DNA from: Nitrospinales bacterium
Lineage (GTDB): Bacteria > Nitrospinota > Nitrospinia > Nitrospinales > VA-1
Length of the DNA: 64,000 nt
Reading direction: 5' to 3'
NCBI GenBank assembly: GCA_965262115.1
Contig: OZ253496.1
Location: 416,001-480,000, forward strand
The position numbers and the translations under genes were made by a program. Shown one piece after another: positions 11,584-55,064 of the stretch. The notes under the pieces are model-generated. The model ran no database searches. It was not told where the DNA came from and saw only the letters and a list, made by a program, of their open reading frames with translations. Position 1 is the first letter of the stretch. The number at the start of each line of letters is the position of its first letter.

Positions 11584-11660
<77 letters not shown>

Positions 11661-20770: not shown

Positions 20771-21760
20771 CTACTTCAACTTCATGGCTTGTTTCGCCTG
20801 CTCCAAGGTGGCCTTGGCTACGGCATGGGCCTTGAGTGTACCTTCGCGCAGAATCTCTTTCACTCCATCGGGCCGGGTGAGAATCTCCTGCCTTTTTTCC
20901 ATCATCGGCCTCATGCCTTCAAGCATGGTTTGTGTAAGCATCTTTTTGCAATCTCCACAGCCTATTTTTGCTGTCCTGCAATCGGAGTCTATATCATCCT
21001 GCATCGTTTTGGGAGAATAGATTTTATGAAACGGATACAGGTTGCACACATCGGGATCACCCGGATCCTCGCGCCGGGCGCGGGCGGGATCTGTAAGCAT
21101 GGACTGAACTTTTTTGCTAATCTCCTTTTCGCTATCTGAAAGAAAAATGGCGTTGTTATAAGTTTTGCTCATTTTTCTCCCATCCAGACCGCTCAACTTG
21201 GGAGTATCAGAAATTTTCGCGCCAGGTTCGATGAAGACCTTCTTCTTATAGAGCTTGTTAAATCGACGGACGATTTCCCGGGATAGTTCAAGATGCGGCG
21301 CCTGGTCTATGCCAACGGGCACGTAATCCGCTTTATATAAGACGATATCCGCAGTTTGCAGAACCGGATAGCCCAAAAACCCGTAAGAACTCATATCCAC
21401 ATTTTTAATTTCATCCCGCTTTTCCTTGTAGGTCGGGTTCCTCTCCAACCAGGGCACAGGAACCATCATGGATAGAATCAGGTGGAGTTCGGCGTGTTCG
21501 GGAATTTCCGACTGGACAAACATCGTGCTTTTTTCTGGATCCAACCCAGCGCTCAACCAGTCTACCGCCACTTCAAAAGAATATTCTTTAATACGGTGTG
21601 GGTCTTCATAAAGGGAGCTGAGCGCATGCCAATCCGCTATAAAAAAATAGCATTCAAACTCATCCTGCAGACTCACCCAGTTTTTCAGCGCTCCAAAATA
21701 GTTCCCCAGATGCAGTTTCCCTGAAGGCTGCATTCCGCTTAAAATTCTTTTAGTTTTCAT
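20771..21760 (-). CDS. trpS: Tryptophan--tRNA ligase
   Basis: SGMQPSGKLHLGNY, YPVLQTADI, VPVGIDQ, KMSKT. Confidence 0.97.
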   Translation of the reverse strand: MKTKRILSGMQPSGKLHLGNYFGALKNWVSLQDEFECYFFIADWHALSSLYEDPHRIKEYSFEVAVDWLSAGLDPEKSTMFVQSEIPEHAELHLILSMMVPVPWLERNPTYKEKRDEIKNVDMSSYGFLGYPVLQTADIVLYKADYVPVGIDQAPHLELSREIVRRFNKLYKKKVFIEPGAKISDTPKLSGLDGRKMSKTYNNAIFLSDSEKEISKKVQSMLTDPARARREDPGDPDVCNLYPFHKIYSPKTMQDDIDSDCRTAKIGCGDCKKMLTQTMLEGMRPMMEKRQEILTRPDGVKEILREGTLKAHAVAKATLEQAKQAMKLK

Positions 21761-21779
21761 TGAAAATTTTCCATCCAAA

Positions 21780-22433
21780 TCAGGCAAAGCTCGCTCTTAA
21801 CACTTCAATAATCAGAGGGAAAGTTTCCTGACTCAGGAATAAAACCGAGTAATTAATAGGTAACATTAAAACGGTACCGAGAATCCCCGTGTGGGCAAAA
21901 TGATCCAGCAAAAAAATGCCTAAAATCAGAAAAGCCCCGAACCGGTCAAGGTGGGTGAGTTGTTCAGCCACTTTATGAGAAACCATGCCTTTCAGCACAC
22001 TAGACCCATCCAAAGGGTACATCGGCAACATATTGAAGATTGCCAAAGCAACATTGATCCATATGCCATAAGCTAAAACAATAAACAAATAAGAAAACTC
22101 AGGTGATATCAGCCGGATAAAAAAACTACAACCCACCGCCATGGCCACATTGGACAAGGGTCCCGCCATAGCCACATACATCATATCCTTGCGGGGATTT
22201 TCAAAGTTCCGCCAATCCACCGGAACCGGTTTCGCCCAGCCAAATCCAACAAAATAGAAAAAAAGCACCCCAAGAATATCCAGGTGCCGTAGAGGATTGA
22301 ACGATAGCCTGCCAAGGCGCTGAGCGGTGTTATCACCGAGCAATAAGGCCATCCTGCCGTGGGAATATTCGTGCACCGTAAGGGAAAATAAAATGACCGG
22401 TGTCATTAATAACATTAATTGCATTTTATTCAA
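21780..22433 (-). CDS. Site-2 protease (peptidase M50)
   Basis: HEYSH, GWAKPVP, AGPLSN, FNMLPMYPLDG. Confidence 0.94.
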   Translation of the reverse strand: MNKMQLMLLMTPVILFSLTVHEYSHGRMALLLGDNTAQRLGRLSFNPLRHLDILGVLFFYFVGFGWAKPVPVDWRNFENPRKDMMYVAMAGPLSNVAMAVGCSFFIRLISPEFSYLFIVLAYGIWINVALAIFNMLPMYPLDGSSVLKGMVSHKVAEQLTHLDRFGAFLILGIFLLDHFAHTGILGTVLMLPINYSVLFLSQETFPLIIEVLRASFA

Positions 22434-23682: not shown

Positions 23683-25178
23683 TCGAGCAATTTTTGCAAA
23701 CTGCCAAAGAGTTTTTTAAAGAAATCTGGTTCCAACTGGATTCCCAATTCGGTCTGGAAAATACGGAAGCTTTTAAATTCCTCAAACCTTATCTCACTCA
23801 GCTTCAGGACAACCCTCTCTATATGTTAATTTCCCTGGCCGCACTCTTCCTGGTTCCCTATGCACTGATAAAAATCATGAGCATCTCCAAAGAACGCGAG
23901 CGCAAGCTCAATGAGATGATGGAGAAAATGGAGGATGACGAAGATGCCCCTCCTTCCTATATGAAAGTTCTCGATGAAATGAAAGGAAAGGATGTGGATG
24001 AGGACGATTTTGAGTCCGAACAGGAGGAGTTTGAACTGGAATCACCTTCATCTGACAATGAAGAAGCTATCGACCTTGAAGAAAACGCAGAGACTATCAG
24101 TTCACAGTTAACGGAAAATGAATTTGAAAAAGACCGGAATGAGTTCATGTCGGATGATATTGACATGGAAAAAGATGTCGAACTCCACCTCGATGACTTT
24201 GAACACGATCAAGCCATCAAAGAGCTCCAGGAGGACGGCGAATTGATGGAGCTGGATGAACCTATTTCCGACAACGATCCCTTCTCGAACTATTCCGAAC
24301 TCGATGATGATGAGCAAGACCAAGCCATCAAGGATCTTCAGGAAGAAATGGAGCGGACCATCAACAAATTGACCGAGCAAATTGAGGAGCCCGCCGAGCC
24401 CCCAAGCTCAATCAAGGATTTAAGCCAAATTCATATTGGCGGAGATGCCACCATTGATGACGATTACTCCCCTGAAACTGAATCTCCAGACAGTCAAAGC
24501 GAAGCACCTGCCCTTCAGGAAGAATCGCTTTCCATCTCCGAGCTTTCAGACTCTGAAACTCTGGCCTCTTTGGAACCGGAGAATGCTCTTGATCTTGAAT
24601 CAATGCTCGAACCAGAAGCTGAAGCAGAACTTGATTTAGAAACTGAAACAGAACCCGAAACAGAATCCGAAACAGAATCCGAAGCCATTCCCGATACCCG
24701 TGATTATGAACCAGAACCTTCTGGCTTCACCTTTGAAGCGGAGTCTGATATTGCGGAAGAACCGGAATCTGAAATCGCAGATTTAAAGCTTGAAGATGAC
24801 TTCAAACTTGAACCGGAAGTTTCTTCCGAGAATTTTTCTTTTGCGCCAGAATCGATGGCGCTTGAGGAAATCCAGGAACCAGAATCGGATGCCGAACTAC
24901 CGCCATTGACTGATGAATATGCTTCTCCAAGGAATACAGATAGCCTGATAGACCAACTCAAATTTTTGCAGACTCGTTTTGAAAACCGGTGCCAGCCGGT
25001 AGAACGTTCCCCATCACCCATTGAAAAAAATATTCCGGGGAAAAACTATATCTCAAAGAGCTTTATAGAACCCAGACGTTACTCAAGCCCATCAGCAGGT
25101 CTGCCCCCGGGCAGCAAAAAGTGTATGGATTTACTGGAATCGTTTATATTCCTGAAAAACCAGAAAAGGCATAAATAA
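23679..25178 (+). CDS. Single-TM protein with long, highly acidic low-complexity region
   Basis: One hydrophobic segment near aa 47-66, then D/E-rich; duplicated DQAIK(E/D)LQE motif. Confidence 0.85.
   Translation: MIEQFLQTAKEFFKEIWFQLDSQFGLENTEAFKFLKPYLTQLQDNPLYMLISLAALFLVPYALIKIMSISKERERKLNEMMEKMEDDEDAPPSYMKVLDEMKGKDVDEDDFESEQEEFELESPSSDNEEAIDLEENAETISSQLTENEFEKDRNEFMSDDIDMEKDVELHLDDFEHDQAIKELQEDGELMELDEPISDNDPFSNYSELDDDEQDQAIKDLQEEMERTINKLTEQIEEPAEPPSSIKDLSQIHIGGDATIDDDYSPETESPDSQSEAPALQEESLSISELSDSETLASLEPENALDLESMLEPEAEAELDLETETEPETESETESEAIPDTRDYEPEPSGFTFEAESDIAEEPESEIADLKLEDDFKLEPEVSSENFSFAPESMALEEIQEPESDAELPPLTDEYASPRNTDSLIDQLKFLQTRFENRCQPVERSPSPIEKNIPGKNYISKSFIEPRRYSSPSAGLPPGSKKCMDLLESFIFLKNQKRHK
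24645..24683 (+). repeat. 12-bp in-frame tandem repeat (3 copies)
   Basis: gaaacagaaccc gaaacagaatcc gaaacagaatcc, encoding ETEP/ETES. Confidence 0.75.
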
Positions 25179-29921: not shown

Positions 29922-30653
29922 CTACTCCCTTTTAACCAGGTCCACTTTCCCGTCATTGTTACGGTCCAGCTCTATTCGGTCAATTTCCCCGAATGAATTG
30001 AAATACTCCCAGCGATCCTTATTTCCATCAAAGTTGGTATCATGCTCAACCTTTTGCAATTGAGTGGAGTTCAAAAAGTACTGCCATTGATCTGGCTCCC
30101 CATCGTGATTGGTGTCAAAAGCGACTGACTCCAAGGACTCATTTTCCCCAAACATTTCCCAGCGGTTAATATTTCCATCACTGGAAATATCATATTCAAC
30201 CCTGTTAATTTTCCCTTCTTCAGAAAAGTATTGAAATACATCTATCTTTCCATCGCCATTTCGATCTATTTCCAATCGAATAATTTTTTTATCTGCATTA
30301 TAAAATTCTCGCCAATCGATCATCCCTGAAAACCGGGAATCCTTTTCAATTTTAATGAGCGAAAATTCCTGGGAATAATGCTGGGCCTGGTCAAAGCTTC
30401 CATCATAATTTCTGTCAAGTTCAACGCGGATCGGTTTTTCGTTGCCCTCATAAATGTCAACCTGATCTACTTTTCCGTCACCATTTCTATCGTATTCAAT
30501 TTTTTCCAGTTTATCGTCATCAGATTTATGATGCCACTGGTCTAGCTTGCCATCGAAGTCGCTGTCCAACTGAGTAACAGATCCTTCCGCGATAGAGGTA
30601 AAAATAAATAAGATTCCGATTAACATAAGCAATCCCGGTTTGATTCGGATCAC
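29922..30653 (-). CDS. Secreted protein with nine 25-aa Dx[DN]xDG repeats (paralog 1)
   Basis: Signal peptide; DSDFDG, DRNGDG, DRNYDG, DSRFSG, DRNGDG, DISSDG, DTNHDG, DTNFDG, DRNNDG at 25-aa spacing; start overlaps the tonB stop. Confidence 0.88.
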   Translation of the reverse strand: MIRIKPGLLMLIGILFIFTSIAEGSVTQLDSDFDGKLDQWHHKSDDDKLEKIEYDRNGDGKVDQVDIYEGNEKPIRVELDRNYDGSFDQAQHYSQEFSLIKIEKDSRFSGMIDWREFYNADKKIIRLEIDRNGDGKIDVFQYFSEEGKINRVEYDISSDGNINRWEMFGENESLESVAFDTNHDGEPDQWQYFLNSTQLQKVEHDTNFDGNKDRWEYFNSFGEIDRIELDRNNDGKVDLVKRE

Positions 30654-31852
30654 GGTTCCTCCAGAATAAAAGAAATAGGGAGTTTGAAAATAATGGAATT
30701 CAACTGGAGAGGTTCCGGTATTTTTGGATAGGGACTGGCATTTCTCACAACATCTAAAGCCGCCTGATTCAAAACTTCATAAGGCGAAGCAACAGCAATT
30801 GAATAGCTCACCAAATTACCATTTTTCCCTACTTGAAATTCTATTACAGGCTTTCCCTCCCATCCTTGATCTTGGGCAATACGTGGGTAATACTTAGCTT
30901 TAGCAATTTTTTTCCAAACCCCCGATGAAAAACCTTTCCTTAGAGAATCTAAATCTATATCGGAAGAATCAACTCCAACTTTTGGTAGATCTGAACTAGT
31001 TGCAGGTTCCAGACTTTCTTCCAATTCCCCCTCTTTGGAAGATCCAACAAATTCTGTAGGTATTGAAGCTAATTGAACTGGTTGAATTTGGTTGTTCAAG
31101 GGAATCCTGGTTTCTCTCCGTACTTCTTGATTTGGCTTATCAGAAACTGCCCAGAAGTTACTGTCATTAGAAATATTTCTTGCTCCAATGTTTGGTCCAG
31201 GAATAGGCCCTTTATAAAATCGGCTAGAGACTTTTGTGATTGTGGCCCTTTGCAATAGCTCTCTATAAGAAACAACTTTTTCAAGCACACGAGCAGGTTC
31301 CACTGAACTGTGAGGTTGTCGAACTGTATAATCAAACATTTCTGTTTGAGCAGGTGAAGGAGAAAATTGTGTTGCGGCAAAATCCAGTTTGGCAACTTGA
31401 ATATATTGCACAGAGTTATTGGGTTGCTGGATTTCTTTTGCAAACATTCCTTTTTGGAAAAATGCTGGCTCAGTCGATTGAGCAATAAAAGGCTTAATGG
31501 GCCTAGGAGTATTAGTTGGCAAAGAGACTAGGGGCTTTGAGATTGATGCCATACTTTTAGCAATAGGTCGAAATCGACTTATTTCGCTACGAGGCTGTAT
31601 CGTTGTGCGCAGAGGTCTATTTACTTTTACAAAATTTTCTTCAACAGGCTGAATTAAATGTGCTTTTTCTACCTTTGGTTTAAGTGAAGATTCATAAATA
31701 ACAGTTTTGATATGAATCGTTTCAAGTTCTGGCACATGGGGTTTGTTGTTGGTTGTCCAATATGCCAGAAACAATAATCCCGCTCCATGTGCAAAGGCAG
31801 AGAGGATAAAGGCATTTTGAAAAAATATATTCTTTTGTGTTCTAAATTTCAT
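30650..31852 (-). CDS. tonB: TonB-family energy transducer
   Basis: N-terminal TM with SAFAH (SxxxH), long linker, C-terminal YPRIA..GWEG..LNQAAL..V..A.P. Confidence 0.88.
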   Translation of the reverse strand: MKFRTQKNIFFQNAFILSAFAHGAGLLFLAYWTTNNKPHVPELETIHIKTVIYESSLKPKVEKAHLIQPVEENFVKVNRPLRTTIQPRSEISRFRPIAKSMASISKPLVSLPTNTPRPIKPFIAQSTEPAFFQKGMFAKEIQQPNNSVQYIQVAKLDFAATQFSPSPAQTEMFDYTVRQPHSSVEPARVLEKVVSYRELLQRATITKVSSRFYKGPIPGPNIGARNISNDSNFWAVSDKPNQEVRRETRIPLNNQIQPVQLASIPTEFVGSSKEGELEESLEPATSSDLPKVGVDSSDIDLDSLRKGFSSGVWKKIAKAKYYPRIAQDQGWEGKPVIEFQVGKNGNLVSYSIAVASPYEVLNQAALDVVRNASPYPKIPEPLQLNSIIFKLPISFILEEP

Positions 31853-31987
31853 TGATGATGCAATTTTATAGAAAATCAGTAAAACAAAAACAGAATAAAA
31901 AAATATCGAGCCAGTAAATTTATATATTGATCACTGAACCAAATTGGATTCAATGAAAATATAAGTTGGAAGCACAATTATAATATA

Positions 31988-33430
31988 CTAATGATTTAAA
32001 AGGCGCTTCCACCCTATAACAACGGCGGTAATGCTAAAGAAAAAACCCACGCTAAGCAGTATCAAGATCAAAACATCCCATAAAGGTCTGTGATTTGCCA
32101 AGCCGGGCAAGTCTAGGCTATGTAAACCATTGAACAACCACCGATATAGGCGCCGACTTTTATCCATGACCGATACTATTTGTCCCGATTCCATATCAAT
32201 ATGTACCCAAGTTTGCTCCGGGTCATCCAATATTACTCTAAGGGTATTTTGAGGCAATGATCCTTCGCGCAGATGCCCATATATATCAGACTCTTCAGGG
32301 TTTTGAGTGGATTGGATTTTTACATCAGGCCAAGCTTTCTTTACTGCATCAATTATTTCTGGCTTTAAAAATTTGGTCGGAGAAAGGGAATCAGGGACCA
32401 TAGGCTTAAATAATTTCATTCCAGCTGGACTTCTTGACATTACAAAGGTTTGTCCACCGGTTGCAAACACCTCAACCTCATTGGAATCGTCCAAGGATTT
32501 TAAAGCCTCAAGAGAAATTTCTTTCACTGCCTGATTTATTGATTTTCCGCGAAATTTTTGTATCTGACTGGTACTAGGACTTGGCTTTGAAAAAATTCGC
32601 CCATGATCCATAGATAACCACCCACTAAATATCCAAGTTAAAATAAATATTCCCGCGAACAATCCCAAAATATGGTGTGTTCGTAACCAACCCTTGAAAG
32701 GGCTGGACATAGTCAATCCAAATTTAATTTTTGCCTCACGAAATCGAACTATGCCCAGATACATTCCAGCCAAAGCTGTTACCACACCAAAAAGGGAAAT
32801 CCACCAGACCACTTGATCCCATAAGGCCCAATTACTGCGTAAGACTGTGGGATAGATCCAATGGGTAATTGCACCGATATAATTCCACATACGCTCATTA
32901 CCTTCGGTTTTTTGCAGAACTTCCCCTGTCCGCGCTGAAACATAATATAACACCGTTTCTTTTTGATCCTGCATGGAAACACGATAAAACGGTCGGTAGG
33001 TATCATAACGGTTCGGCACAATCCATTGGTCGTAATCGAGAGGCCCTTCAACTCTTAAAGCAGATTCCCCGAAAAAATTTTCCGCGACCCTTCCAGCTGA
33101 TCGCGTCTGAAGAAGATCTGACGACTTGCCATCGTGCGCATTCACAACCTTTATTCCACTATTGAGACTATGGAATACATAAATGGGCCACCCTTCCAAA
33201 TCGATCAACCTGAGACGATCCAAGCTAATACTTCCGATGCCCTTGACGGCTTTTGTCGGGGAAATAAGAACTTTTGAAAGATCCACCTCTGGACTACGGG
33301 AAAATCGGTCCGCTTGCGAAAGCGAAGGGAAAGGATGGTAAATCAGAACGGCGCCACTTAAAAACCAAACCGCAAAAAATAAACACAGGACTACTCCCAT
33401 CCAGCGGTGAGCCAGTGTCAGAAAACGCAT
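31988..33430 (-). CDS. PepSY-associated TM-helix protein
   Basis: HRWMG, WFLSG, THW, HHILG, WIFSG, RWLFNGLHSLD with soluble PepSY-like inserts. Confidence 0.9.
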   Translation of the reverse strand: MRFLTLAHRWMGVVLCLFFAVWFLSGAVLIYHPFPSLSQADRFSRSPEVDLSKVLISPTKAVKGIGSISLDRLRLIDLEGWPIYVFHSLNSGIKVVNAHDGKSSDLLQTRSAGRVAENFFGESALRVEGPLDYDQWIVPNRYDTYRPFYRVSMQDQKETVLYYVSARTGEVLQKTEGNERMWNYIGAITHWIYPTVLRSNWALWDQVVWWISLFGVVTALAGMYLGIVRFREAKIKFGLTMSSPFKGWLRTHHILGLFAGIFILTWIFSGWLSMDHGRIFSKPSPSTSQIQKFRGKSINQAVKEISLEALKSLDDSNEVEVFATGGQTFVMSRSPAGMKLFKPMVPDSLSPTKFLKPEIIDAVKKAWPDVKIQSTQNPEESDIYGHLREGSLPQNTLRVILDDPEQTWVHIDMESGQIVSVMDKSRRLYRWLFNGLHSLDLPGLANHRPLWDVLILILLSVGFFFSITAVVIGWKRLLNH

Positions 33431-33449
33431 AAGGGTTATCTCGATTTAA

Positions 33450-35627
33450 TTAAAAATCAAACTGAGCGCTGATTTCAAAGGCCCGTGGAGAACCCAGAAT
33501 TAACTGGTTTTTATAAAACTCGTCTCCCCAAAGCGCATAAGCCTTATCGAACAGATTCGTCAATCTTGCGGTGTACCGACCATTTCCTTTGTAGTAAGTG
33601 GCATGAAGATCCACCGTTTCGTAGGCCAGCATTTTCACTGTATTGAATCGGGTGTTAAAACGGTCCCCGACATAACGAAAACTACCTCCCACATCTATGG
33701 GAAGTCCTGCAACACCGCGATAATTGGTCCAGATATTAGCCACCCATTCAGGAACATTGGAGGGGGTATTACCTGAGACGTCTTCAAAAACACCGAACTC
33801 TGCATCGGTATAGGCAGTATTGGCACCAATCCGCCATTTTGGTGTCACCAGAATTGAGCCTTCCAGTTCAAATCCTGTCGACCGCTGACCTCCATCGCCG
33901 CCCAGAACACTATCGTTTGAATCTTGTATCAGGATATTTTGCCTTTCAATGTGGTAGACGGCCAATGTCATTTCCGCTTTCCCATTCAGGAACCGGGACT
34001 TCAACCCCGCTTCCCATTGTTGCGAAGTAGAAAGGTCAAAGTTTTGGTTACTATTGACAAGAAAAACATCTGATCCCAAAGGATCGGTGCCGGAACTCGT
34101 TTGGGCATAAACGTTCCAGGATGGAGCAATTTCGTAAACCGCGCCCACCCGCCAACTGAAAGGATTATAGGTGCGTTCAAATGATGTTCCGGGAGTGGGA
34201 TCATTAAAGTTGAGCCGGAACAACTCTATATGATCCTGACGCATACCCACAACCAACCTTAATTTCTCTGTAACTTTTAAAGCATCCTCAAAAAAAGTAG
34301 AAACCGTGATGATACGGGTAGGGTTAAGCCTGAAGTTTGTCGGGTTTCCCCCAACGCTCCCCCCGACGGGTGAAAAGGGATCCACAGAACCGGGATTTGC
34401 AAGCGGCTGCGACTTTCTTTCAAAGTCCACATAACTGGCATCGACACCGAAAAGAGATTGGTTCTCCATCCCGGCAATGGTATTTTTGTACGTCGCACTC
34501 AACTGATTACCAACTGTGTTTTGCAAATGGGCCACAAAAAAGGTGTCACGGTCAATCACTCCTGCATTAAATGTATAATTTTCTGAGTTGCGCCATTCCC
34601 GGTCCGCATTGAGAAAGTAAGTATAATTGCGAAACGAGAGTTTATTACTGTGTTTTCGCTTGGCATCTATCGTTGTTAAAATTTGATACGAGTCTGCCAC
34701 CTCATCATCAACATTGTAATTGACAAACCGCATTCGCTCGTCGATGGCCGCTCCAGCCCCTGTCACCACCCCGGTGAGGGGCTGGGTGGCAAATGCTTCT
34801 GTCACGATGGGGGTCCCCCAATAGTTTTGCAGTTTATCTTCCAGGTAATCAATGCCGAAGGTCACATCCAACTGATCATTAGGCTTCCACAATAGCGAAC
34901 CATTGAAGTTTCTTGATTTGGGATCGGCATTATCGACGTATCCATCCGAGCTGTATTCACTGCCATCGATCCGAAACCATAAGTTTTCACTCATTTGCCC
35001 ACCTGCCCCGACACCGAGCTTGACCGTGCCATAGCGACCGTAGGAGGTTAAAAGCTCATAAGAGTTTGTGCTTTTAGTCGTCGGTTTTTGGGTGATCATG
35101 TTCAGGGTGGCACCAATTGCTCCCTGGCCATGCAATACCGAGGCAGTACCTTTGAGGACCTCGATCCGATCCAGATTGAAACCGTTTTGGGGACGTCCGG
35201 TGATCAATGCCGGTCCCAACCAGATTCCGTCCCGTTGAATCATGACCTGATTGGAGGTGAAACCACGCATGGAATAATTGGCAGGCTCTGCGGGAGGATT
35301 TCCCCAAACGAACCCGGGTGATCGCTCGAGAGCTTTTCCCACTTTCTGATACCCTCCACCTTTCAATTCAGAATTACTGATAACGGTTATTGAAGCCGGG
35401 GTCTCAAAAGCCGGAAGGTCCAGACGACTACTGGTATTGAGTGAAAAATCGAAATTAAACACACTTGGAGTAACAAGTAATTCATCCAACTCCAAAACTG
35501 GAGGTGAGGAATTATCATGATTTTTATTAGGAGCATCATTTTGAGCCCAACTCATAGAAAATGCTTGAAACAGTAAAACGAAAGTTGAAACCAATACCAA
35601 AAGAACTTTATTCATGTTTTTTTCCAT
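33450..35627 (-). CDS. TonB-dependent outer-membrane receptor (siderophore-receptor-like)
   Basis: Signal peptide, LDELLVT TonB box, ETPASITVI, DRIEVLKGTASVLHG, NLFDK.Y, terminal Phe; exact start (35627 or 35615) uncertain. Confidence 0.93.
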   Translation of the reverse strand: MEKNMNKVLLVLVSTFVLLFQAFSMSWAQNDAPNKNHDNSSPPVLELDELLVTPSVFNFDFSLNTSSRLDLPAFETPASITVISNSELKGGGYQKVGKALERSPGFVWGNPPAEPANYSMRGFTSNQVMIQRDGIWLGPALITGRPQNGFNLDRIEVLKGTASVLHGQGAIGATLNMITQKPTTKSTNSYELLTSYGRYGTVKLGVGAGGQMSENLWFRIDGSEYSSDGYVDNADPKSRNFNGSLLWKPNDQLDVTFGIDYLEDKLQNYWGTPIVTEAFATQPLTGVVTGAGAAIDERMRFVNYNVDDEVADSYQILTTIDAKRKHSNKLSFRNYTYFLNADREWRNSENYTFNAGVIDRDTFFVAHLQNTVGNQLSATYKNTIAGMENQSLFGVDASYVDFERKSQPLANPGSVDPFSPVGGSVGGNPTNFRLNPTRIITVSTFFEDALKVTEKLRLVVGMRQDHIELFRLNFNDPTPGTSFERTYNPFSWRVGAVYEIAPSWNVYAQTSSGTDPLGSDVFLVNSNQNFDLSTSQQWEAGLKSRFLNGKAEMTLAVYHIERQNILIQDSNDSVLGGDGGQRSTGFELEGSILVTPKWRIGANTAYTDAEFGVFEDVSGNTPSNVPEWVANIWTNYRGVAGLPIDVGGSFRYVGDRFNTRFNTVKMLAYETVDLHATYYKGNGRYTARLTNLFDKAYALWGDEFYKNQLILGSPRAFEISAQFDF

Positions 35628-35680
35628 TTTTGGAATAATAAAATTTACCCCCAGCCTCAAATCTTGCTGGAAAATTAAGC

Positions 35681-35719
35681 AAAAAAAAACCTCGCACCTC
35701 CAAATGGAGGACCGAGGTT
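35681..35719 (-). terminator. Intrinsic terminator, expression platform of left riboswitch
   Basis: Reverse complement aacctcg-gt-cctcc-attt-ggagg-tg-cgaggtt running into a T9 tract. Confidence 0.88.
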
Positions 35720-35794
35720 GATTGCACCCTGTTTACTTGTATCAACATTTTTTGGGCAGACACCAATATTCCGCGACAGGTGGAACCCTTATTG

Positions 35795-35974
35795 TTTCAG
35801 GCAGGTCTTCTGACTCGCGTTCAGCCTACTTTCTGCACCTTCCCAACGAGTAACGTCAGTGGCTTTTTGCAGATTTCGTCACGCTCACAGCGGCGGGACC
35901 GTGGTTGAATTTCACAACCTTCCCTATTATTTCCTGAAAGAAAATCAAATTTTCGCTTCCAGGAAACCTGAAAA
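35795..35974 (-). ncRNA. Cobalamin riboswitch (AdoCbl/class I type), left copy
   Basis: AGGGAA..GTGAAA..CCCGCCGCTGTGA..AAGCCACTG..GGGAAGG..GAGTCAGAAGACCTGCC (B12 box); P1 tttcagg/cctgaaa. Confidence 0.96.
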
Positions 35975-35983
35975 TCTTCCGAC

Positions 35984-36011
35984 AGCATAAACCAAAAAAT
36001 TCACGCGTCAA
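35984..36011 (-). promoter_or_regulatory. Putative sigma70 promoter of the left arm
   Basis: TTGACG-N16-TATGCT just upstream of riboswitch P1. Confidence 0.55.
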
Positions 36012-36653
36012 GTAATTTATAAAAAAACACCCTGCCCGTTATTACAACTGCCTGTTAACCTGAGATATTCACTCTCCCCTGCTCCAGTAAAAACAAGCAG
36101 TTCACCGCCCGCATGAAAACCGAGCACCTCAGAAGGAATTTTTAGTGCCCGGTACTCTCCAAAAGAAAAACCAGTCAGCCTTAGCAAGGTACAGAATATG
36201 TCCTGATAAATATTCATGCTTTGTCTGATACCGCGCTATCTAAATTCTTAATTATCTTAAACAAAGTTGAAAAGGTATTGGGAGTATCGGGTAACCGAGG
36301 CGCAGGAGTTTTCCTTATCCTGCGCCGGTTCGGTTTTTCAAGACGTTCACCTACTGGACCTGCTTCCTCTCGTCCGCACGAAAACCGATATCTCCATAAT
36401 TTTGATTTTCAAGAGCGGGGTTGAAGCCAAACCCCACACCACATTGCGCCTGACCTTAGCCATTGACCCCTTCTCCCCCTGAATATAAGGGTATATCTAC
36501 TGATCCATAACACCTTGAATTTAAGGGACATGAAATCGAAAGAAACGCGCGTTGAAGTTGACAAATAACCAAAAACCAAGGAAATGATTGAAATCGTATT
36601 TATTACTTGTAAATATCTGGAAGTTCTACAATAATGGCGCTTGAAATTATATG

Positions 36654-36814
36654 TTTTAGGTTTCCTGTATTTAGGGAATGAAAAGGGAAGGTTGTGAAAT
36701 TCAACCACGGTCCCGCCGCTGTGAGCGTGACGAAATCTGCAAAAAGCCACTGACGTTACTCGTTGGGAAGGTGCAGAAAGTAGGCTGAACGCGAGTCAGA
36801 AGACCTGCCTGAAA
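36654..36814 (+). ncRNA. Cobalamin riboswitch (AdoCbl/class I type), right copy
   Basis: Same conserved motifs; 36684-36814 is the exact reverse complement of 35795-35925. Confidence 0.96.
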
Positions 36815-36883
36815 TTATAAATATTACCTTTTGGGTTCAAAAGGTAAGTCTATTTGGTTGATTAAGTAAACCAGGGTGCGATC

Positions 36884-36922
36884 AACCTCAGTCCTCAATT
36901 CAGAGGGATGAGGTTTTTTTTT
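36884..36922 (+). terminator. Intrinsic terminator, expression platform of right riboswitch
   Basis: aacctca-gt-cctc-aattca-gagg-ga-tgaggtt running into a T9 tract. Confidence 0.88.
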
Positions 36923-37000: not shown

Positions 37001-38191
37001 ATGAAAAAAATAGTAGCCCTTTTTTGCCTCATTGCTTTTCTTAACCCGGTAAATCTTTTTGCTTTTGATTGGAAAAACCATGATTTGTCCCATCTAGTGG
37101 TGGTCACCAATCGCGATGCAGATGAATTGACCATCGTCGACATGACAACAGATGAGGTGATCGGCAAACAGAAAGTGGCACTAAACAGTCAGGCCCATAT
37201 GACGGCCTTTTCTCCGGATGGCAAAAAGTTGGCCATTGCCGCTACCGCGAACAACAAAGTTGCAGTCCTGGATCTGAGTACCAACAAAGTGAGTGAAATT
37301 AATGTGGGGTCCGGTCCCGAGCATATGGATATCAGCAAAGATAATCGCTGGTTGTATGTCGGGAACATTGAAGGAGGAACGGTTTCAGCGATTGATTTGG
37401 ATCAAAACCGGGAAGTAGCCCGTCTGAAAGGTTTTCGTGAACCTCATGGCGCTACCATCATGGCTTCTGGCAATAAAGTTTATATTCCCAACCGCGGCGC
37501 CCAGTTGGTAGGGATGGTGAATGTGTCTGAACAATTTTCTACCAGTGATATTCTCGTCGGATCTCTTACCGGTTTGGCCTCGTTCGACAGAGATCAAGCA
37601 GGAGCTGCCATGCACCGTGAACGATCTATACCAGTAAATGGAGTGGCGAATGTCACCCTGACCCTGGATGAAAAATTCGCTTATATCGCCACCGGTGATA
37701 CAAATTCTGTGACGGTTTTAGATACCGCAACGGATAAAATAGTCCGCACTATTCCTGTCGGCTTGGACCCTTGGAGAGCGTACGCTTCCCCGGATGGAAA
37801 ATATATGGTTGTTCCCAACAACGGCGATCAAACGGTCTCAGTCATTGACGCGCAATCCCACACACTCGTTGCCACCCTCTCCGGAGCGGTCGATATGACA
37901 GGAGTGAATTTTGCCAGCAACAAAGGATATGTGATCAGCCGAGGGTCGAGCCTAGTTTTAGTCTACGATTTCTCGACACTTAAAAAAACGGGTCAACTGG
38001 ATATGGGTAAGAGCGCACGGCTAGAAACCGCAAGCACTTCCCCCGCTGGCAACAAAATTTATGTGGCCTCCTCCTCCAATAATTCCCTTTACGTCATTGA
38101 TGTTGAGTCGGATCGCGTCAAGCAGATCAAGGATGTCGGTAATTTCCCCTGGGGAGTCAGCATTTACAAGGGGCAGAATTACTGCCATTGA
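37001..38191 (+). CDS. Secreted YVTN/YncE-type beta-propeller
   Basis: Signal peptide MKKIVALF..LFA; repeated SPDGK/LYVGN/TVSVID/IPVG.P blades; C-terminal NYCH. Confidence 0.9.
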   Translation: MKKIVALFCLIAFLNPVNLFAFDWKNHDLSHLVVVTNRDADELTIVDMTTDEVIGKQKVALNSQAHMTAFSPDGKKLAIAATANNKVAVLDLSTNKVSEINVGSGPEHMDISKDNRWLYVGNIEGGTVSAIDLDQNREVARLKGFREPHGATIMASGNKVYIPNRGAQLVGMVNVSEQFSTSDILVGSLTGLASFDRDQAGAAMHRERSIPVNGVANVTLTLDEKFAYIATGDTNSVTVLDTATDKIVRTIPVGLDPWRAYASPDGKYMVVPNNGDQTVSVIDAQSHTLVATLSGAVDMTGVNFASNKGYVISRGSSLVLVYDFSTLKKTGQLDMGKSARLETASTSPAGNKIYVASSSNNSLYVIDVESDRVKQIKDVGNFPWGVSIYKGQNYCH

Positions 38192-38267: not shown

Positions 38268-39215
38268 ATGAACATGGATGAAACTGCGGCTCTGCCCGAC
38301 AATTATGCCATATGTATCGCAGGCCATGGAAGCCGCGATAAGGAAGGCATTCAGGAATTTTTGACCTTGTCCTCAAAGTTCAAGGAAAGAGAGCCTCATA
38401 GAATTGTGGAATGCGGCTTTCTGGAGTTTGCAAAACCTACGATCGACGAAGCCATTAGTAAATGTGTGCAGGATGGGATCAACAATATTGTTGTGATTCC
38501 GGGGGTGTTGATGGCTGCGGGTCACGCCAAGAATGATATGCCCAGTGAAGTCCTGTCCATGGCTCGAAAATTTCCTGCCATGAATATTCAATATGGTCGC
38601 CCTCTGGATATCCATCCAAAAGTTTTAAAAGTTTGCGCTGACCGCATTGAATCGGCCGAAAACTCCTCCGCGCAAAAAACTCTGCGTTCCGACACTTTGC
38701 TCATGACAGTGGGACGCGGTAGCAGTGACCCGGATTCCAATTCCAATATCGCCAAAGTCTCCCGGATGTTGTGGGAGGGAATGGGGTTTGGCTGGTCAGA
38801 AACAAGCTTCATTGGGATCACACAGCCTCTGTTGCCAGACGCTCTGGATAAAGTCGTTAAAATGGGATTCAAACGCATTATCGTCTTTCCCTTTTTCCTT
38901 TTCACAGGCGTGTTAGTAAAAAGGATTTTTTCCATAACCGGTGATTTTCAGAAAAAATACCCGGGCACGGAATTTCTGAAAGCTCCTTATCTGAACTATG
39001 ATGATTTGATCGTCGATGTTTTCATGGAAAGAGCCCGGGAAATTCCTTTTGGCCTGCAGGATATGAATTGCCAGCTTTGTAAATACCGCGAGCAGGTGAT
39101 AGGTTTCGAGGATCAGGTGGGGCAACCCCAGGTAGGCCATCATCACCATGTTCGGGGTATTGATGGCCATCATTTGGACCATGAACATCATAGTCATTCA
39201 GACCATGAGCACTAA
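38268..39215 (+). CDS. cbiX: Sirohydrochlorin cobaltochelatase, long form
   Basis: GHGSR, GFLEF, AGHAKND, GRGSSDPD, MNCQLC motif, His-rich tail. Confidence 0.95.
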   Translation: MNMDETAALPDNYAICIAGHGSRDKEGIQEFLTLSSKFKEREPHRIVECGFLEFAKPTIDEAISKCVQDGINNIVVIPGVLMAAGHAKNDMPSEVLSMARKFPAMNIQYGRPLDIHPKVLKVCADRIESAENSSAQKTLRSDTLLMTVGRGSSDPDSNSNIAKVSRMLWEGMGFGWSETSFIGITQPLLPDALDKVVKMGFKRIIVFPFFLFTGVLVKRIFSITGDFQKKYPGTEFLKAPYLNYDDLIVDVFMERAREIPFGLQDMNCQLCKYREQVIGFEDQVGQPQVGHHHHVRGIDGHHLDHEHHSHSDHEH

Positions 39216-53804: not shown

Positions 53805-55064
53805 ATGTCTGGAAAAACTATTTTGGTCACAGGTGGAAGCCGGAGTGGTAAAAGCCGTCATGCTCTCCAATTAACCAAGAATATTAATGCCGCGAAAATA
53901 TTTTTGGCCACCGCAGAGCCTCTCGACGACGAAATGGCTGAAAGAATCAAAAAACACCAGGATGAGCGCGGCAAGGAATGGACCACTATTGAAGAACCTC
54001 TTGATCCAGCAAGTGTATTAAGGGATAAAGGAAACCAGCCCGGTTTCATAATTCTCGACTGCGTCACTTTATGGTTGAGTAATATGGTCATGAAAAACAT
54101 GGCGCGGCAAACCATACTGGAACGGGTCCATGAATTTATCAGCGTATGCAAAAACTGCACGAGCCATATCATTGTCATCACCAATGAGCTGGGTTCAGGA
54201 ATTGTTCCTCTTGAACCTTCTGCAAGAGCATTTCGCGATATCGCAGGCGAAACCAACCAAATTCTCGCATCTGAATTCGATGAAGTGATCAGCATGGTGT
54301 CAGGAATTCCCGTCACTATAAAAACATCCAAAAAAACCCGCGGCACAGACCAAGCCAAGGATAAGAACCCTGAGCATGAGTTTTCGCCAGGAAAAAAGCA
54401 GGGACTCTATGAGGCCATATACAAGCGCCGCGATGTGCGCCACTTCATCCCCAAACCAGTTGATCCTGAAAAATTGGGCCGGGTTTTAGATGCAGCCCAT
54501 CACGCCGGTTCCGTAGGATATATGCAACCTTGGAATTTTCTGGTGATCACCGATCCAGAAGTAAAAAACAAAATCGTCCTGAACTTTAAGACTGCCAATG
54601 AAGAGGCAGCACAAAAATTCAGTGGCGACCAACAAAAACTTTACAACTCCCTCAAGCTGGAAGGCATCCAGGATGCCGCAGTCAATATTTGTGTGACCTG
54701 CGACCGCACACGTTTTGGACCCAATGTTTTGGGAAGAAATACGGTTTTTGAAACAGACCTTTTCAGTACCTGTTGTGCAGTGCAAAACCTCTGGCTTGCA
54801 GCCCGTGCAGAAGGGCTCGCGGTAGGCTGGGTGAGCATTTTATCCAATGACCAGTTAAAGGAAGATTTAGATATTCCCGATCATATTCAGCCGGTGGCTT
54901 ATTTATGCGTCGGCCATACTGAGTCATTTTACCCCAAACCCATGCTGGAAACAGCAGGTTGGGCCCAGCGACTGCCTGTTGAAAAATTGATTTACTATAA
55001 TAAATGGCAGGGACCATCTACAGACTTTAAGGTTCATTTTCCTGACCCTACAAAAAATGATTGA
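53805..55064 (+). CDS. cobU-bluB: Fusion of CobU (adenosylcobinamide kinase/guanylyltransferase) and BluB (5,6-dimethylbenzimidazole synthase)
   Basis: N-half TGGSRSGKS, EMAERIKKH, LDCVTLW, TNE.G.GIVP, FRD.AG..NQ; C-half RRDVRHF, AAHHAGSVGYMQPW, LKLEGI, NLWLAARAEG..VGWVS. Confidence 0.93.
   Translation: MSGKTILVTGGSRSGKSRHALQLTKNINAAKIFLATAEPLDDEMAERIKKHQDERGKEWTTIEEPLDPASVLRDKGNQPGFIILDCVTLWLSNMVMKNMARQTILERVHEFISVCKNCTSHIIVITNELGSGIVPLEPSARAFRDIAGETNQILASEFDEVISMVSGIPVTIKTSKKTRGTDQAKDKNPEHEFSPGKKQGLYEAIYKRRDVRHFIPKPVDPEKLGRVLDAAHHAGSVGYMQPWNFLVITDPEVKNKIVLNFKTANEEAAQKFSGDQQKLYNSLKLEGIQDAAVNICVTCDRTRFGPNVLGRNTVFETDLFSTCCAVQNLWLAARAEGLAVGWVSILSNDQLKEDLDIPDHIQPVAYLCVGHTESFYPKPMLETAGWAQRLPVEKLIYYNKWQGPSTDFKVHFPDPTKND

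Follow-up and report, generated by a model that had tools for sequence, protein, structure and literature searches.

The window analyzed here, a 64,000-nucleotide stretch of a Nitrospinales contig, contains two cobalamin riboswitches that point divergently, one (U) into a TonB-receptor operon and the other (S) into a cobalamin synthesis operon. The aptamer of U occupies positions 35783..35986 of the minus strand and matches the cobalamin riboswitch family RF00174 with 120.4 bits, while that of S occupies 36642..36826 of the plus strand and matches with 125.1 bits. Both matches span model positions 1–189, far above the gathering score of 31.5, and the covariance model hence recovers at full length both riboswitches proposed in the original prediction, which had been made from the letters alone. 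The unequal 5′ stems described there are also present, P2 being long in the left copy (U) and short in the right copy (S). No further RF00174 match occurs in the 2.68-Mb single-contig genome, which is 93.86% complete. The pair resembles other members of the family in its full-length scores, its B12 box, its position upstream of cobalamin synthesis and TonB-receptor genes, and its predicted P13 and terminator-like stem, but differs in that two copies stand back to back with identical cores.

Each aptamer is followed by a predicted expression platform. That of U (35681..35746, minus strand) consists of a GTTGAT/ATCAAC hairpin, the predicted P13, with CAGGGTGC in its loop, followed by a terminator-like stem (35690-35717) and a T run, and that of S (36857..36922, plus strand) likewise has a predicted P13, a terminator-like stem, and a T run. 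Hairpin, stem, and T run are conserved in 23 aligned copies as judged from predicted folds; a simple terminator scan listed neither stem, and minimum-energy folding of the whole aptamers yielded no clear antiterminator. The G-C to A-T pair change reported earlier for the terminator stem is indeed there (CCTCG/CGAGG on the left, CCTCA/TGAGG on the right). Each RNA would sense B12 and stop transcription at its own terminator. Directly upstream of each copy lies a promoter-like site that is conserved in relatives, the two sites facing opposite ways: a predicted sigma-70-type promoter for U at 35984..36011 on the minus strand (TTGACG, 16 nt, TATGCT; TTGAC in 10 of the 12 aligned U copies), and another for S at 36607..36635 on the plus strand (TTGTAA ... 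ACAATAAT; TTG(T/A)A in all 9 aligned S copies). The sigma-70 scan is weak alone, with 3 sites found against 2.3 expected by chance, and the conservation was read from an alignment of relatives.

The first gene behind U is a TonB-dependent receptor (33450..35615, minus strand, with a likely ATG at 35615), followed on the same strand by a PepSY-TM protein (31988-33430), TonB (30650-31852), and an ORF of 243 aa. Import of B12 by this receptor is an assumption, because its score reaches the cut-off of no NCBIfam family, not even that of BtuB. In three relatives (G007, G014, and G021), U is followed instead by a beta-propeller paralogue. The U module (window 29922-35986) is mobile, with a varying gene behind it (loci L053, L055, L058, L060, L067, and L078); L078 lacks it beside cobQ, and a genome of another family (G047) has a close U-type copy with 12 core differences from the window. 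Behind S, the YVTN-type beta-propeller (37001..38191, plus strand) is followed, up to position 55064, by cbiX-like, cbiC, D, L, F, G, H, J, and E genes, a chelatase subunit, cobN, cobB, cobA, cobS, and a cobU-bluB fusion. The latter is a single ORF (53805-55064) that joins a CobU-like kinase/guanylyltransferase (residues 4-174) to BluB (residues 193-395). Between 38268 and 51068, genes of the anaerobic route (cbiX-like chelatase, cbiD, and cbiG) stand alongside cobN and the ATPase subunit of a chelatase, and two cobalt-insertion systems thus appear side by side in the synthesis operon. Elsewhere in the window, a tRNA with a CAT anticodon lies at 11584-11657.

An exact inverted repeat spanning both aptamer cores

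The core of U on the receptor side (35795..35925, minus strand) is the exact reverse complement of the core of S on the synthesis side (36684..36814, plus strand) over 131 nt. The match is maximal at both ends, and together with the RF00174 matches it confirms the earlier observation that exact arms cover the aptamer core through the B12 box. The exact tract extends from AGGGAAGG, which follows P2, across the B12 box and as far as the P1 3′ strand. When mismatches are allowed the arms reach 151 nt at 95% identity, and a second, weaker block of homology joins the two platforms (35681-35746 and 36857-36922; 66 nt at 79%). The probability that two independent copies would be identical by chance is roughly 10^-10 even when conservation of the aptamer is taken into account, a figure based on 47 variable and 90 invariant columns out of 137 among 14 chosen copies, with the columns treated as independent. 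There are eight cases in the genome of exact inverted arms of at least 100 nt within 10 kb of each other, and the riboswitch pair is the only one of them whose first 25-mer occurs just twice. Other repeats of the genome lie outside the window: three near-perfect palindromes of ~0.7 kb (G000:C1:10826-11517, 21160-21833, and 24241-24994, the latter two related), and two perfect arrays of a 6-nt unit, ~295 nt each and 34 kb apart (G000:C1:4252-4546 and 38268-38561). Many 1.2-kb repeats are dispersed through the genome.

The 758-nt spacer between the arms (35926..36683, assigned to neither strand) holds the 5′ arms of the two aptamers and the two promoter-like sites without a recognized gene, and has the same orientation in relatives. 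An ORF at 36409-36750 has no NCBIfam or Pfam match. A hidden gene or gene remnant was considered and rejected, since among the compared loci and in the genome itself only orthologous spacers match, apart from a weak 55-nt match in L092.

The original prediction had named collapse by the assembler as an alternative explanation, in which two similar copies were merged or polished into one consensus. Contig building can erase small bubbles, and runs X1–X3 may be source samples of the window assembly. However, in run X1 the core forms a 131-nt contig with a depth of 463.5, compared with 247.3, 221.7, and 226.8 for the left flank, spacer, and right flank, a ratio of 2.0x where a single hidden central mismatch would give ~1.7x (arithmetic assuming 31-letter words); all 23 runs consist of assembled contigs, whose depth is no copy number and from which rare variants are dropped, and the comparison covered eight of these runs. 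In run X3 the core reaches only 1.4x (14.8 versus 13.1, 6.8, and 11.4) at low depth. Run X4 confirms the left copy only (35320-35925, 0 differences), and the cover from X4, X9, and X11 is partial, of low depth, or mixed. The assemblies of relatives G019, G007, and G014 are not collapsed, because they retain 1, 3, and 8 differences between their two copies, yet they display the same concerted pattern as the window, and a further strain with that pattern (X5) comes from a different study. Collapse of the two cores is therefore unlikely, and we assign it very little probability.

Old paralogues with concerted cores

The ancestry of the pair was assessed from trees of 24 copies (14 U and 10 S) from 14 genomes, including the one studied here, and two metagenome contigs. 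The tree of the 5′ arms splits U from S with a support of 99/100, and that of the 3′ platforms does likewise (99/98). The tree of the cores (23 rows, the decayed S copy of G021 being left out) instead requires 7 label changes, the same number as when the labels are shuffled, and an S clade is rejected (p-AU 0.004), although this tree rests on a short core of 131 columns and many of its forks are unresolved. The same partition is seen in individual columns. When the window is compared with G019, G007, and G014, the core columns shared within a genome number 9, 11, and 16 and those shared between orthologues 0, 0, and 0, whereas in the flanks the corresponding numbers are 0, 0, and 2 within genomes and 52, 44, and 39 between orthologues. 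The two copies of a genome differ in the core at 0 positions in the window, 1 in G019, 3 in G007, and 8 in G014. Cores within one genome are thus closer to each other than to their orthologues in the window genome (G000), G019, and G014, and partly in G007; this is not the case in G012, G005, and G020.

Strain-level data point the same way. Strain X5 is ~96–99% like the window in its flanks, with 12 differences over 1024 nt of the left flank, 24 in the spacer piece, and 42 in the right flank. A single 112-nt contig serves both of its copies, with a depth of 215.2 against 116, 105.9, and 105.5 for the flanks, and differs from the window core by 5 substitutions and a 2-nt deletion. Concerted evolution of the cores follows from the presence of all these changes in both X5 copies, and the sequences indicate that both copies have changed together since the X5 and window strains parted. 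Run X13 contains a comparable contig of 130 nt that has the 2-nt deletion together with 7 substitutions, although the depth ratio is weaker (72.6 versus 39–59, ~1.5x). The X5 allele is also found in the core piece covered in X8 and X11, which makes the window allele the exception within its clade. The window allele resembles those of more distant lineages, and it may have been imported and then copied from one riboswitch to the other.

Two explanations of the identity dispense with ongoing exchange. According to the first, selection alone keeps the cores alike. The aptamer core is strongly conserved, with 90 of 137 columns invariant in 14 copies, but among the changes common to both copies are loop bases and a 2-nt indel, which vary freely between strains and species. 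Two copies cannot credibly have fixed the same 5 substitutions and indel in parallel, and G012, G005, and G020 tolerate at least 13 differences between their cores. We therefore consider selection alone, which the shared indels already contradict, very improbable. According to the second, the core underwent one recent inverted duplication or insertion, for which the perfect identity in the window and the movement of the receptor module among relatives, and into another family, could be taken to speak. Against it, both copies exist genus-wide with their own diverged arms and platforms, and the window, X5, G019, G007, and G014 have distinct core alleles, each common to both copies, so that several separate events would be needed. 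Strain-specific shared alleles have already largely refuted such a duplication, which we regard as extremely improbable.

The reading we prefer, and hold to be very probably correct, is that U and S are two old paralogous riboswitches whose cores have been homogenized by repeated non-reciprocal copying (gene conversion) without crossover. This agrees with the original proposal of an old duplication that was recently homogenized: the flanks group by orthologue, the cores do not, and changes are shared by both copies at the level of strains.

Direction and mechanism of the proposed copying

The original prediction suggested the left copy as the donor, on the grounds that the shared P1 3′ strand pairs perfectly only with the left 5′ strand. 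Pairing is indeed perfect on the left, but the right P1 pairs as well, by way of a G-U wobble, and the predicted duplexes are of similar stability (-10.3 kcal/mol on the left and -9.3 on the right). In the less-converted genomes, the P1 3′ strand is mostly CCTGAAA in U copies and mostly CCTGGA(A/G) in S copies. In the window, either copy shows the U state, in agreement with a left donor at this site in its lineage; the claim does not extend further, because in G019 and G014 either copy shows the S state. Copying would thus seem to be recurrent and to run both ways, judging from this one site and from an insertion in G014 that is shared with the S copy of G012.

We envisage repeated copying between the cores without crossover, with the donor alternating between events and each tract ending where homology ends, that is, after P2 and after the P1 3′ strand. 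The riboswitches would tolerate such copying, since each 5′ arm can pair with both 3′ strands; the predicted swapped P1 duplexes (-10.4 and -12.5 kcal/mol) are as stable as the native ones. At the edge of this scheme, the U terminators of three loci (L056, L057, and L073) have S-like 5′ arms of their own, which hints at an occasional second conversion block in the platform.

Intact recA and mutS genes are present in all five genomes searched (mutS of G014 is split over two contigs), so RecA-type conversion would be available. Loss of mismatch repair was considered as a cause and rejected, mutS being intact. A local, replication-linked template switch may nevertheless have produced the copying in preference to RecA-type break repair, and we lean slightly towards it because homogenization was observed only in pairs within ~2 kb and no inversion has been retained. 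In Salmonella, rates of RecA-type conversion did not track distance at the chromosome scale (PMC8262849, PMC5485169), which is why the restriction to ~2 kb tips the balance towards a template switch. The missing inversions would be accounted for just as well if the flipped state were selected against. Template switching can homogenize the arms of inverted repeats through clustered multi-base changes, and the spacer need not invert (PMC8604942). The likeness to the present case is that the arms become identical without inversion, whereas the system described there concerns yeast genes with arms of 7–16 bp and spacers of up to 70 nt, compared with 131 nt and 758 nt here. Another parallel is tufA/tufB of Salmonella, for which concerted evolution by gene conversion is described (PMC5485169, PMC8262849). 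There, too, the paralogues are inverted and lie on a single chromosome, the background is recA+ mutS+, and copying is non-reciprocal, with inversion as a possible by-product. It affects a whole gene, however, instead of a 131-nt non-coding RNA core; the arms here are 0.4–2 kb apart, and no inversion has been retained.

Orientation of the spacer and occurrence in the family

The original prediction further proposed that a crossover between the arms would flip the 758-nt spacer, as a possible switch between making and importing B12. Core crossovers would have to invert the spacer often enough for the two operons, that of the receptor and that of synthesis, to be switched or tuned heritably. The inverted geometry permits such events, the flipped riboswitches are predicted to keep P1, and recA is present. 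At Salmonella inverted repeats, the proportion of selected conversions accompanied by inversion ranges from 8% (5/59) to almost half (PMC8262849, PMC5485169), and rare flips could accordingly be expected as a by-product. Rare flips are therefore plausible, given the stable swapped P1 duplexes and these Salmonella inversions.

The arrangements actually found speak against a switch. None of the 24 copies combines the 5′ arm of one type with the platform of the other, and none of the seven same-contig pairs is flipped (G000, G019, G007, G012, G014, G005, and G020), the spacer being colinear where alignable; these relatives, being kin, count as roughly four to five independent lineages, and only the majority form is visible in an assembly. 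None of seven loci found in a metagenome scan is flipped either (two G012-like, two on one G014-like contig, one G091-like, and two new ones, L073 and L078); records of a genome scan that repeated genomes of the set were counted once. The contigs of the runs break at the repeat, such that either orientation of the spacer yields the same pieces, but on one X8 contig the spacer, core, and right platform are joined in the window orientation. No serine recombinase (PF00239) was found in the 93.86% complete genome, and the nearest of four tyrosine-recombinase (PF00589) matches lies ~154 kb away. Moreover, the length of the spacer ranges from ~0.4 to 6.4 kb among relatives, and the right aptamer has been deleted or has decayed in some lineages. 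A flip would not give an on/off output, because both promoter-like sites are conserved; at most it would be expected to swap the strengths of these two sites, with both operons staying under a B12 riboswitch. The proposed make-versus-import switch thus finds no support in 24 copies or seven same-contig pairs; on sequence grounds the spacer is unlikely to act as a flip switch, and an invertible promoter cassette of this kind has a very low probability in our judgment.

Known invertible elements, such as the RecV-dependent flagellar switch of Clostridioides difficile, which has a riboswitch in the same leader, and the invertible promoters of Bacteroides, combine short repeats with a site-specific recombinase, both orientations, and an on/off output. 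The riboswitch pair shares with such recombinase-driven elements the inverted repeats around regulatory DNA, but a linked recombinase, both orientations, and an on/off asymmetry were not found in the genome and relatives examined. A more elaborate variant would have the cores double as recombination arms, with copying between them matching the B12 set-points of the two operons, while a minority of cells flips the spacer and trades promoters and P1/P2 arms, which would amount to an invertase-free make-versus-import tuner. If it existed, such a tuner would be hidden in consensus assemblies, both riboswitches staying functional; we consider it improbable to the same degree as the cassette.

Returning to homogenization without crossover, its frequency was surveyed across the family. 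RF00174 matches are present in 56 of 70 genomes, and 34 genomes with at least two matches on one contig provide 46 within-genome pairs, pairs split over contigs being left out. Four of these 46 pairs (those of G000, G019, G014, and G030) are closer to each other than to any copy in another genome, and two (G007 and G079) are borderline. The G030 pair is direct, 85% identical, and without close orthologues in the set. In G012, the gap between the Rfam matches is among the shortest (412 nt), yet the cores differ at 16–23 positions and share at most a short tract (49 nt exact). In G005 and G020, where the copies lie 6.4 kb from each other, the cores group by orthology (9 columns versus 0). Those of G050 (33 kb apart, direct) differ at 20 positions and those of G041 (on separate contigs) at 14, no fewer than when compared with the copies of other genomes. 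Proximity alone was rejected as a cause, given four divergent pairs of different subtypes that are 119–2013 nt apart and only 62–71% identical; those separated by merely 119–161 nt are ~63% identical. Residual homology would thus be needed for homogenization, and closeness seems to help, a trend that rests on few lineages because G005 and G020 probably represent one event.

The locus constitutes a natural case of concerted evolution that acts on a regulatory RNA module rather than on a gene. A change in one B12 sensor would be copied to the other, so that the sensors of the two operons co-evolve while their promoters and terminators do not. Riboswitch trees may consequently group by genome without any recent duplication, and repeats of this kind break short-read assemblies. 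Gene conversion and concerted evolution are textbook processes, and both the parts (cobalamin riboswitches) and the process (compare tufA/tufB) are already known. The new elements are the evidence from individual strains, the polarity in both directions, the comparison of partitions, and the control across the whole family. No publication on gene conversion or concerted evolution of riboswitches, or on riboswitches of Nitrospina, was found in a search of titles and the starts of abstracts, with most subscription papers outside its range.

Some synthesis-side leaders have lost their sensor or carry a decayed one. In G091 (L066:5350-5800) and in L073 (1770-1885), the leader has no aptamer core but contains a promoter-like site, a short P2, and a remnant hairpin joined to a terminator-like stem, and the core was apparently lost by deletion between two TCAACC motifs. 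In G021 (L061:5046-5225), the synthesis-side aptamer has decayed to a score of 43.1 bits, with 31 differences from its paralogue.
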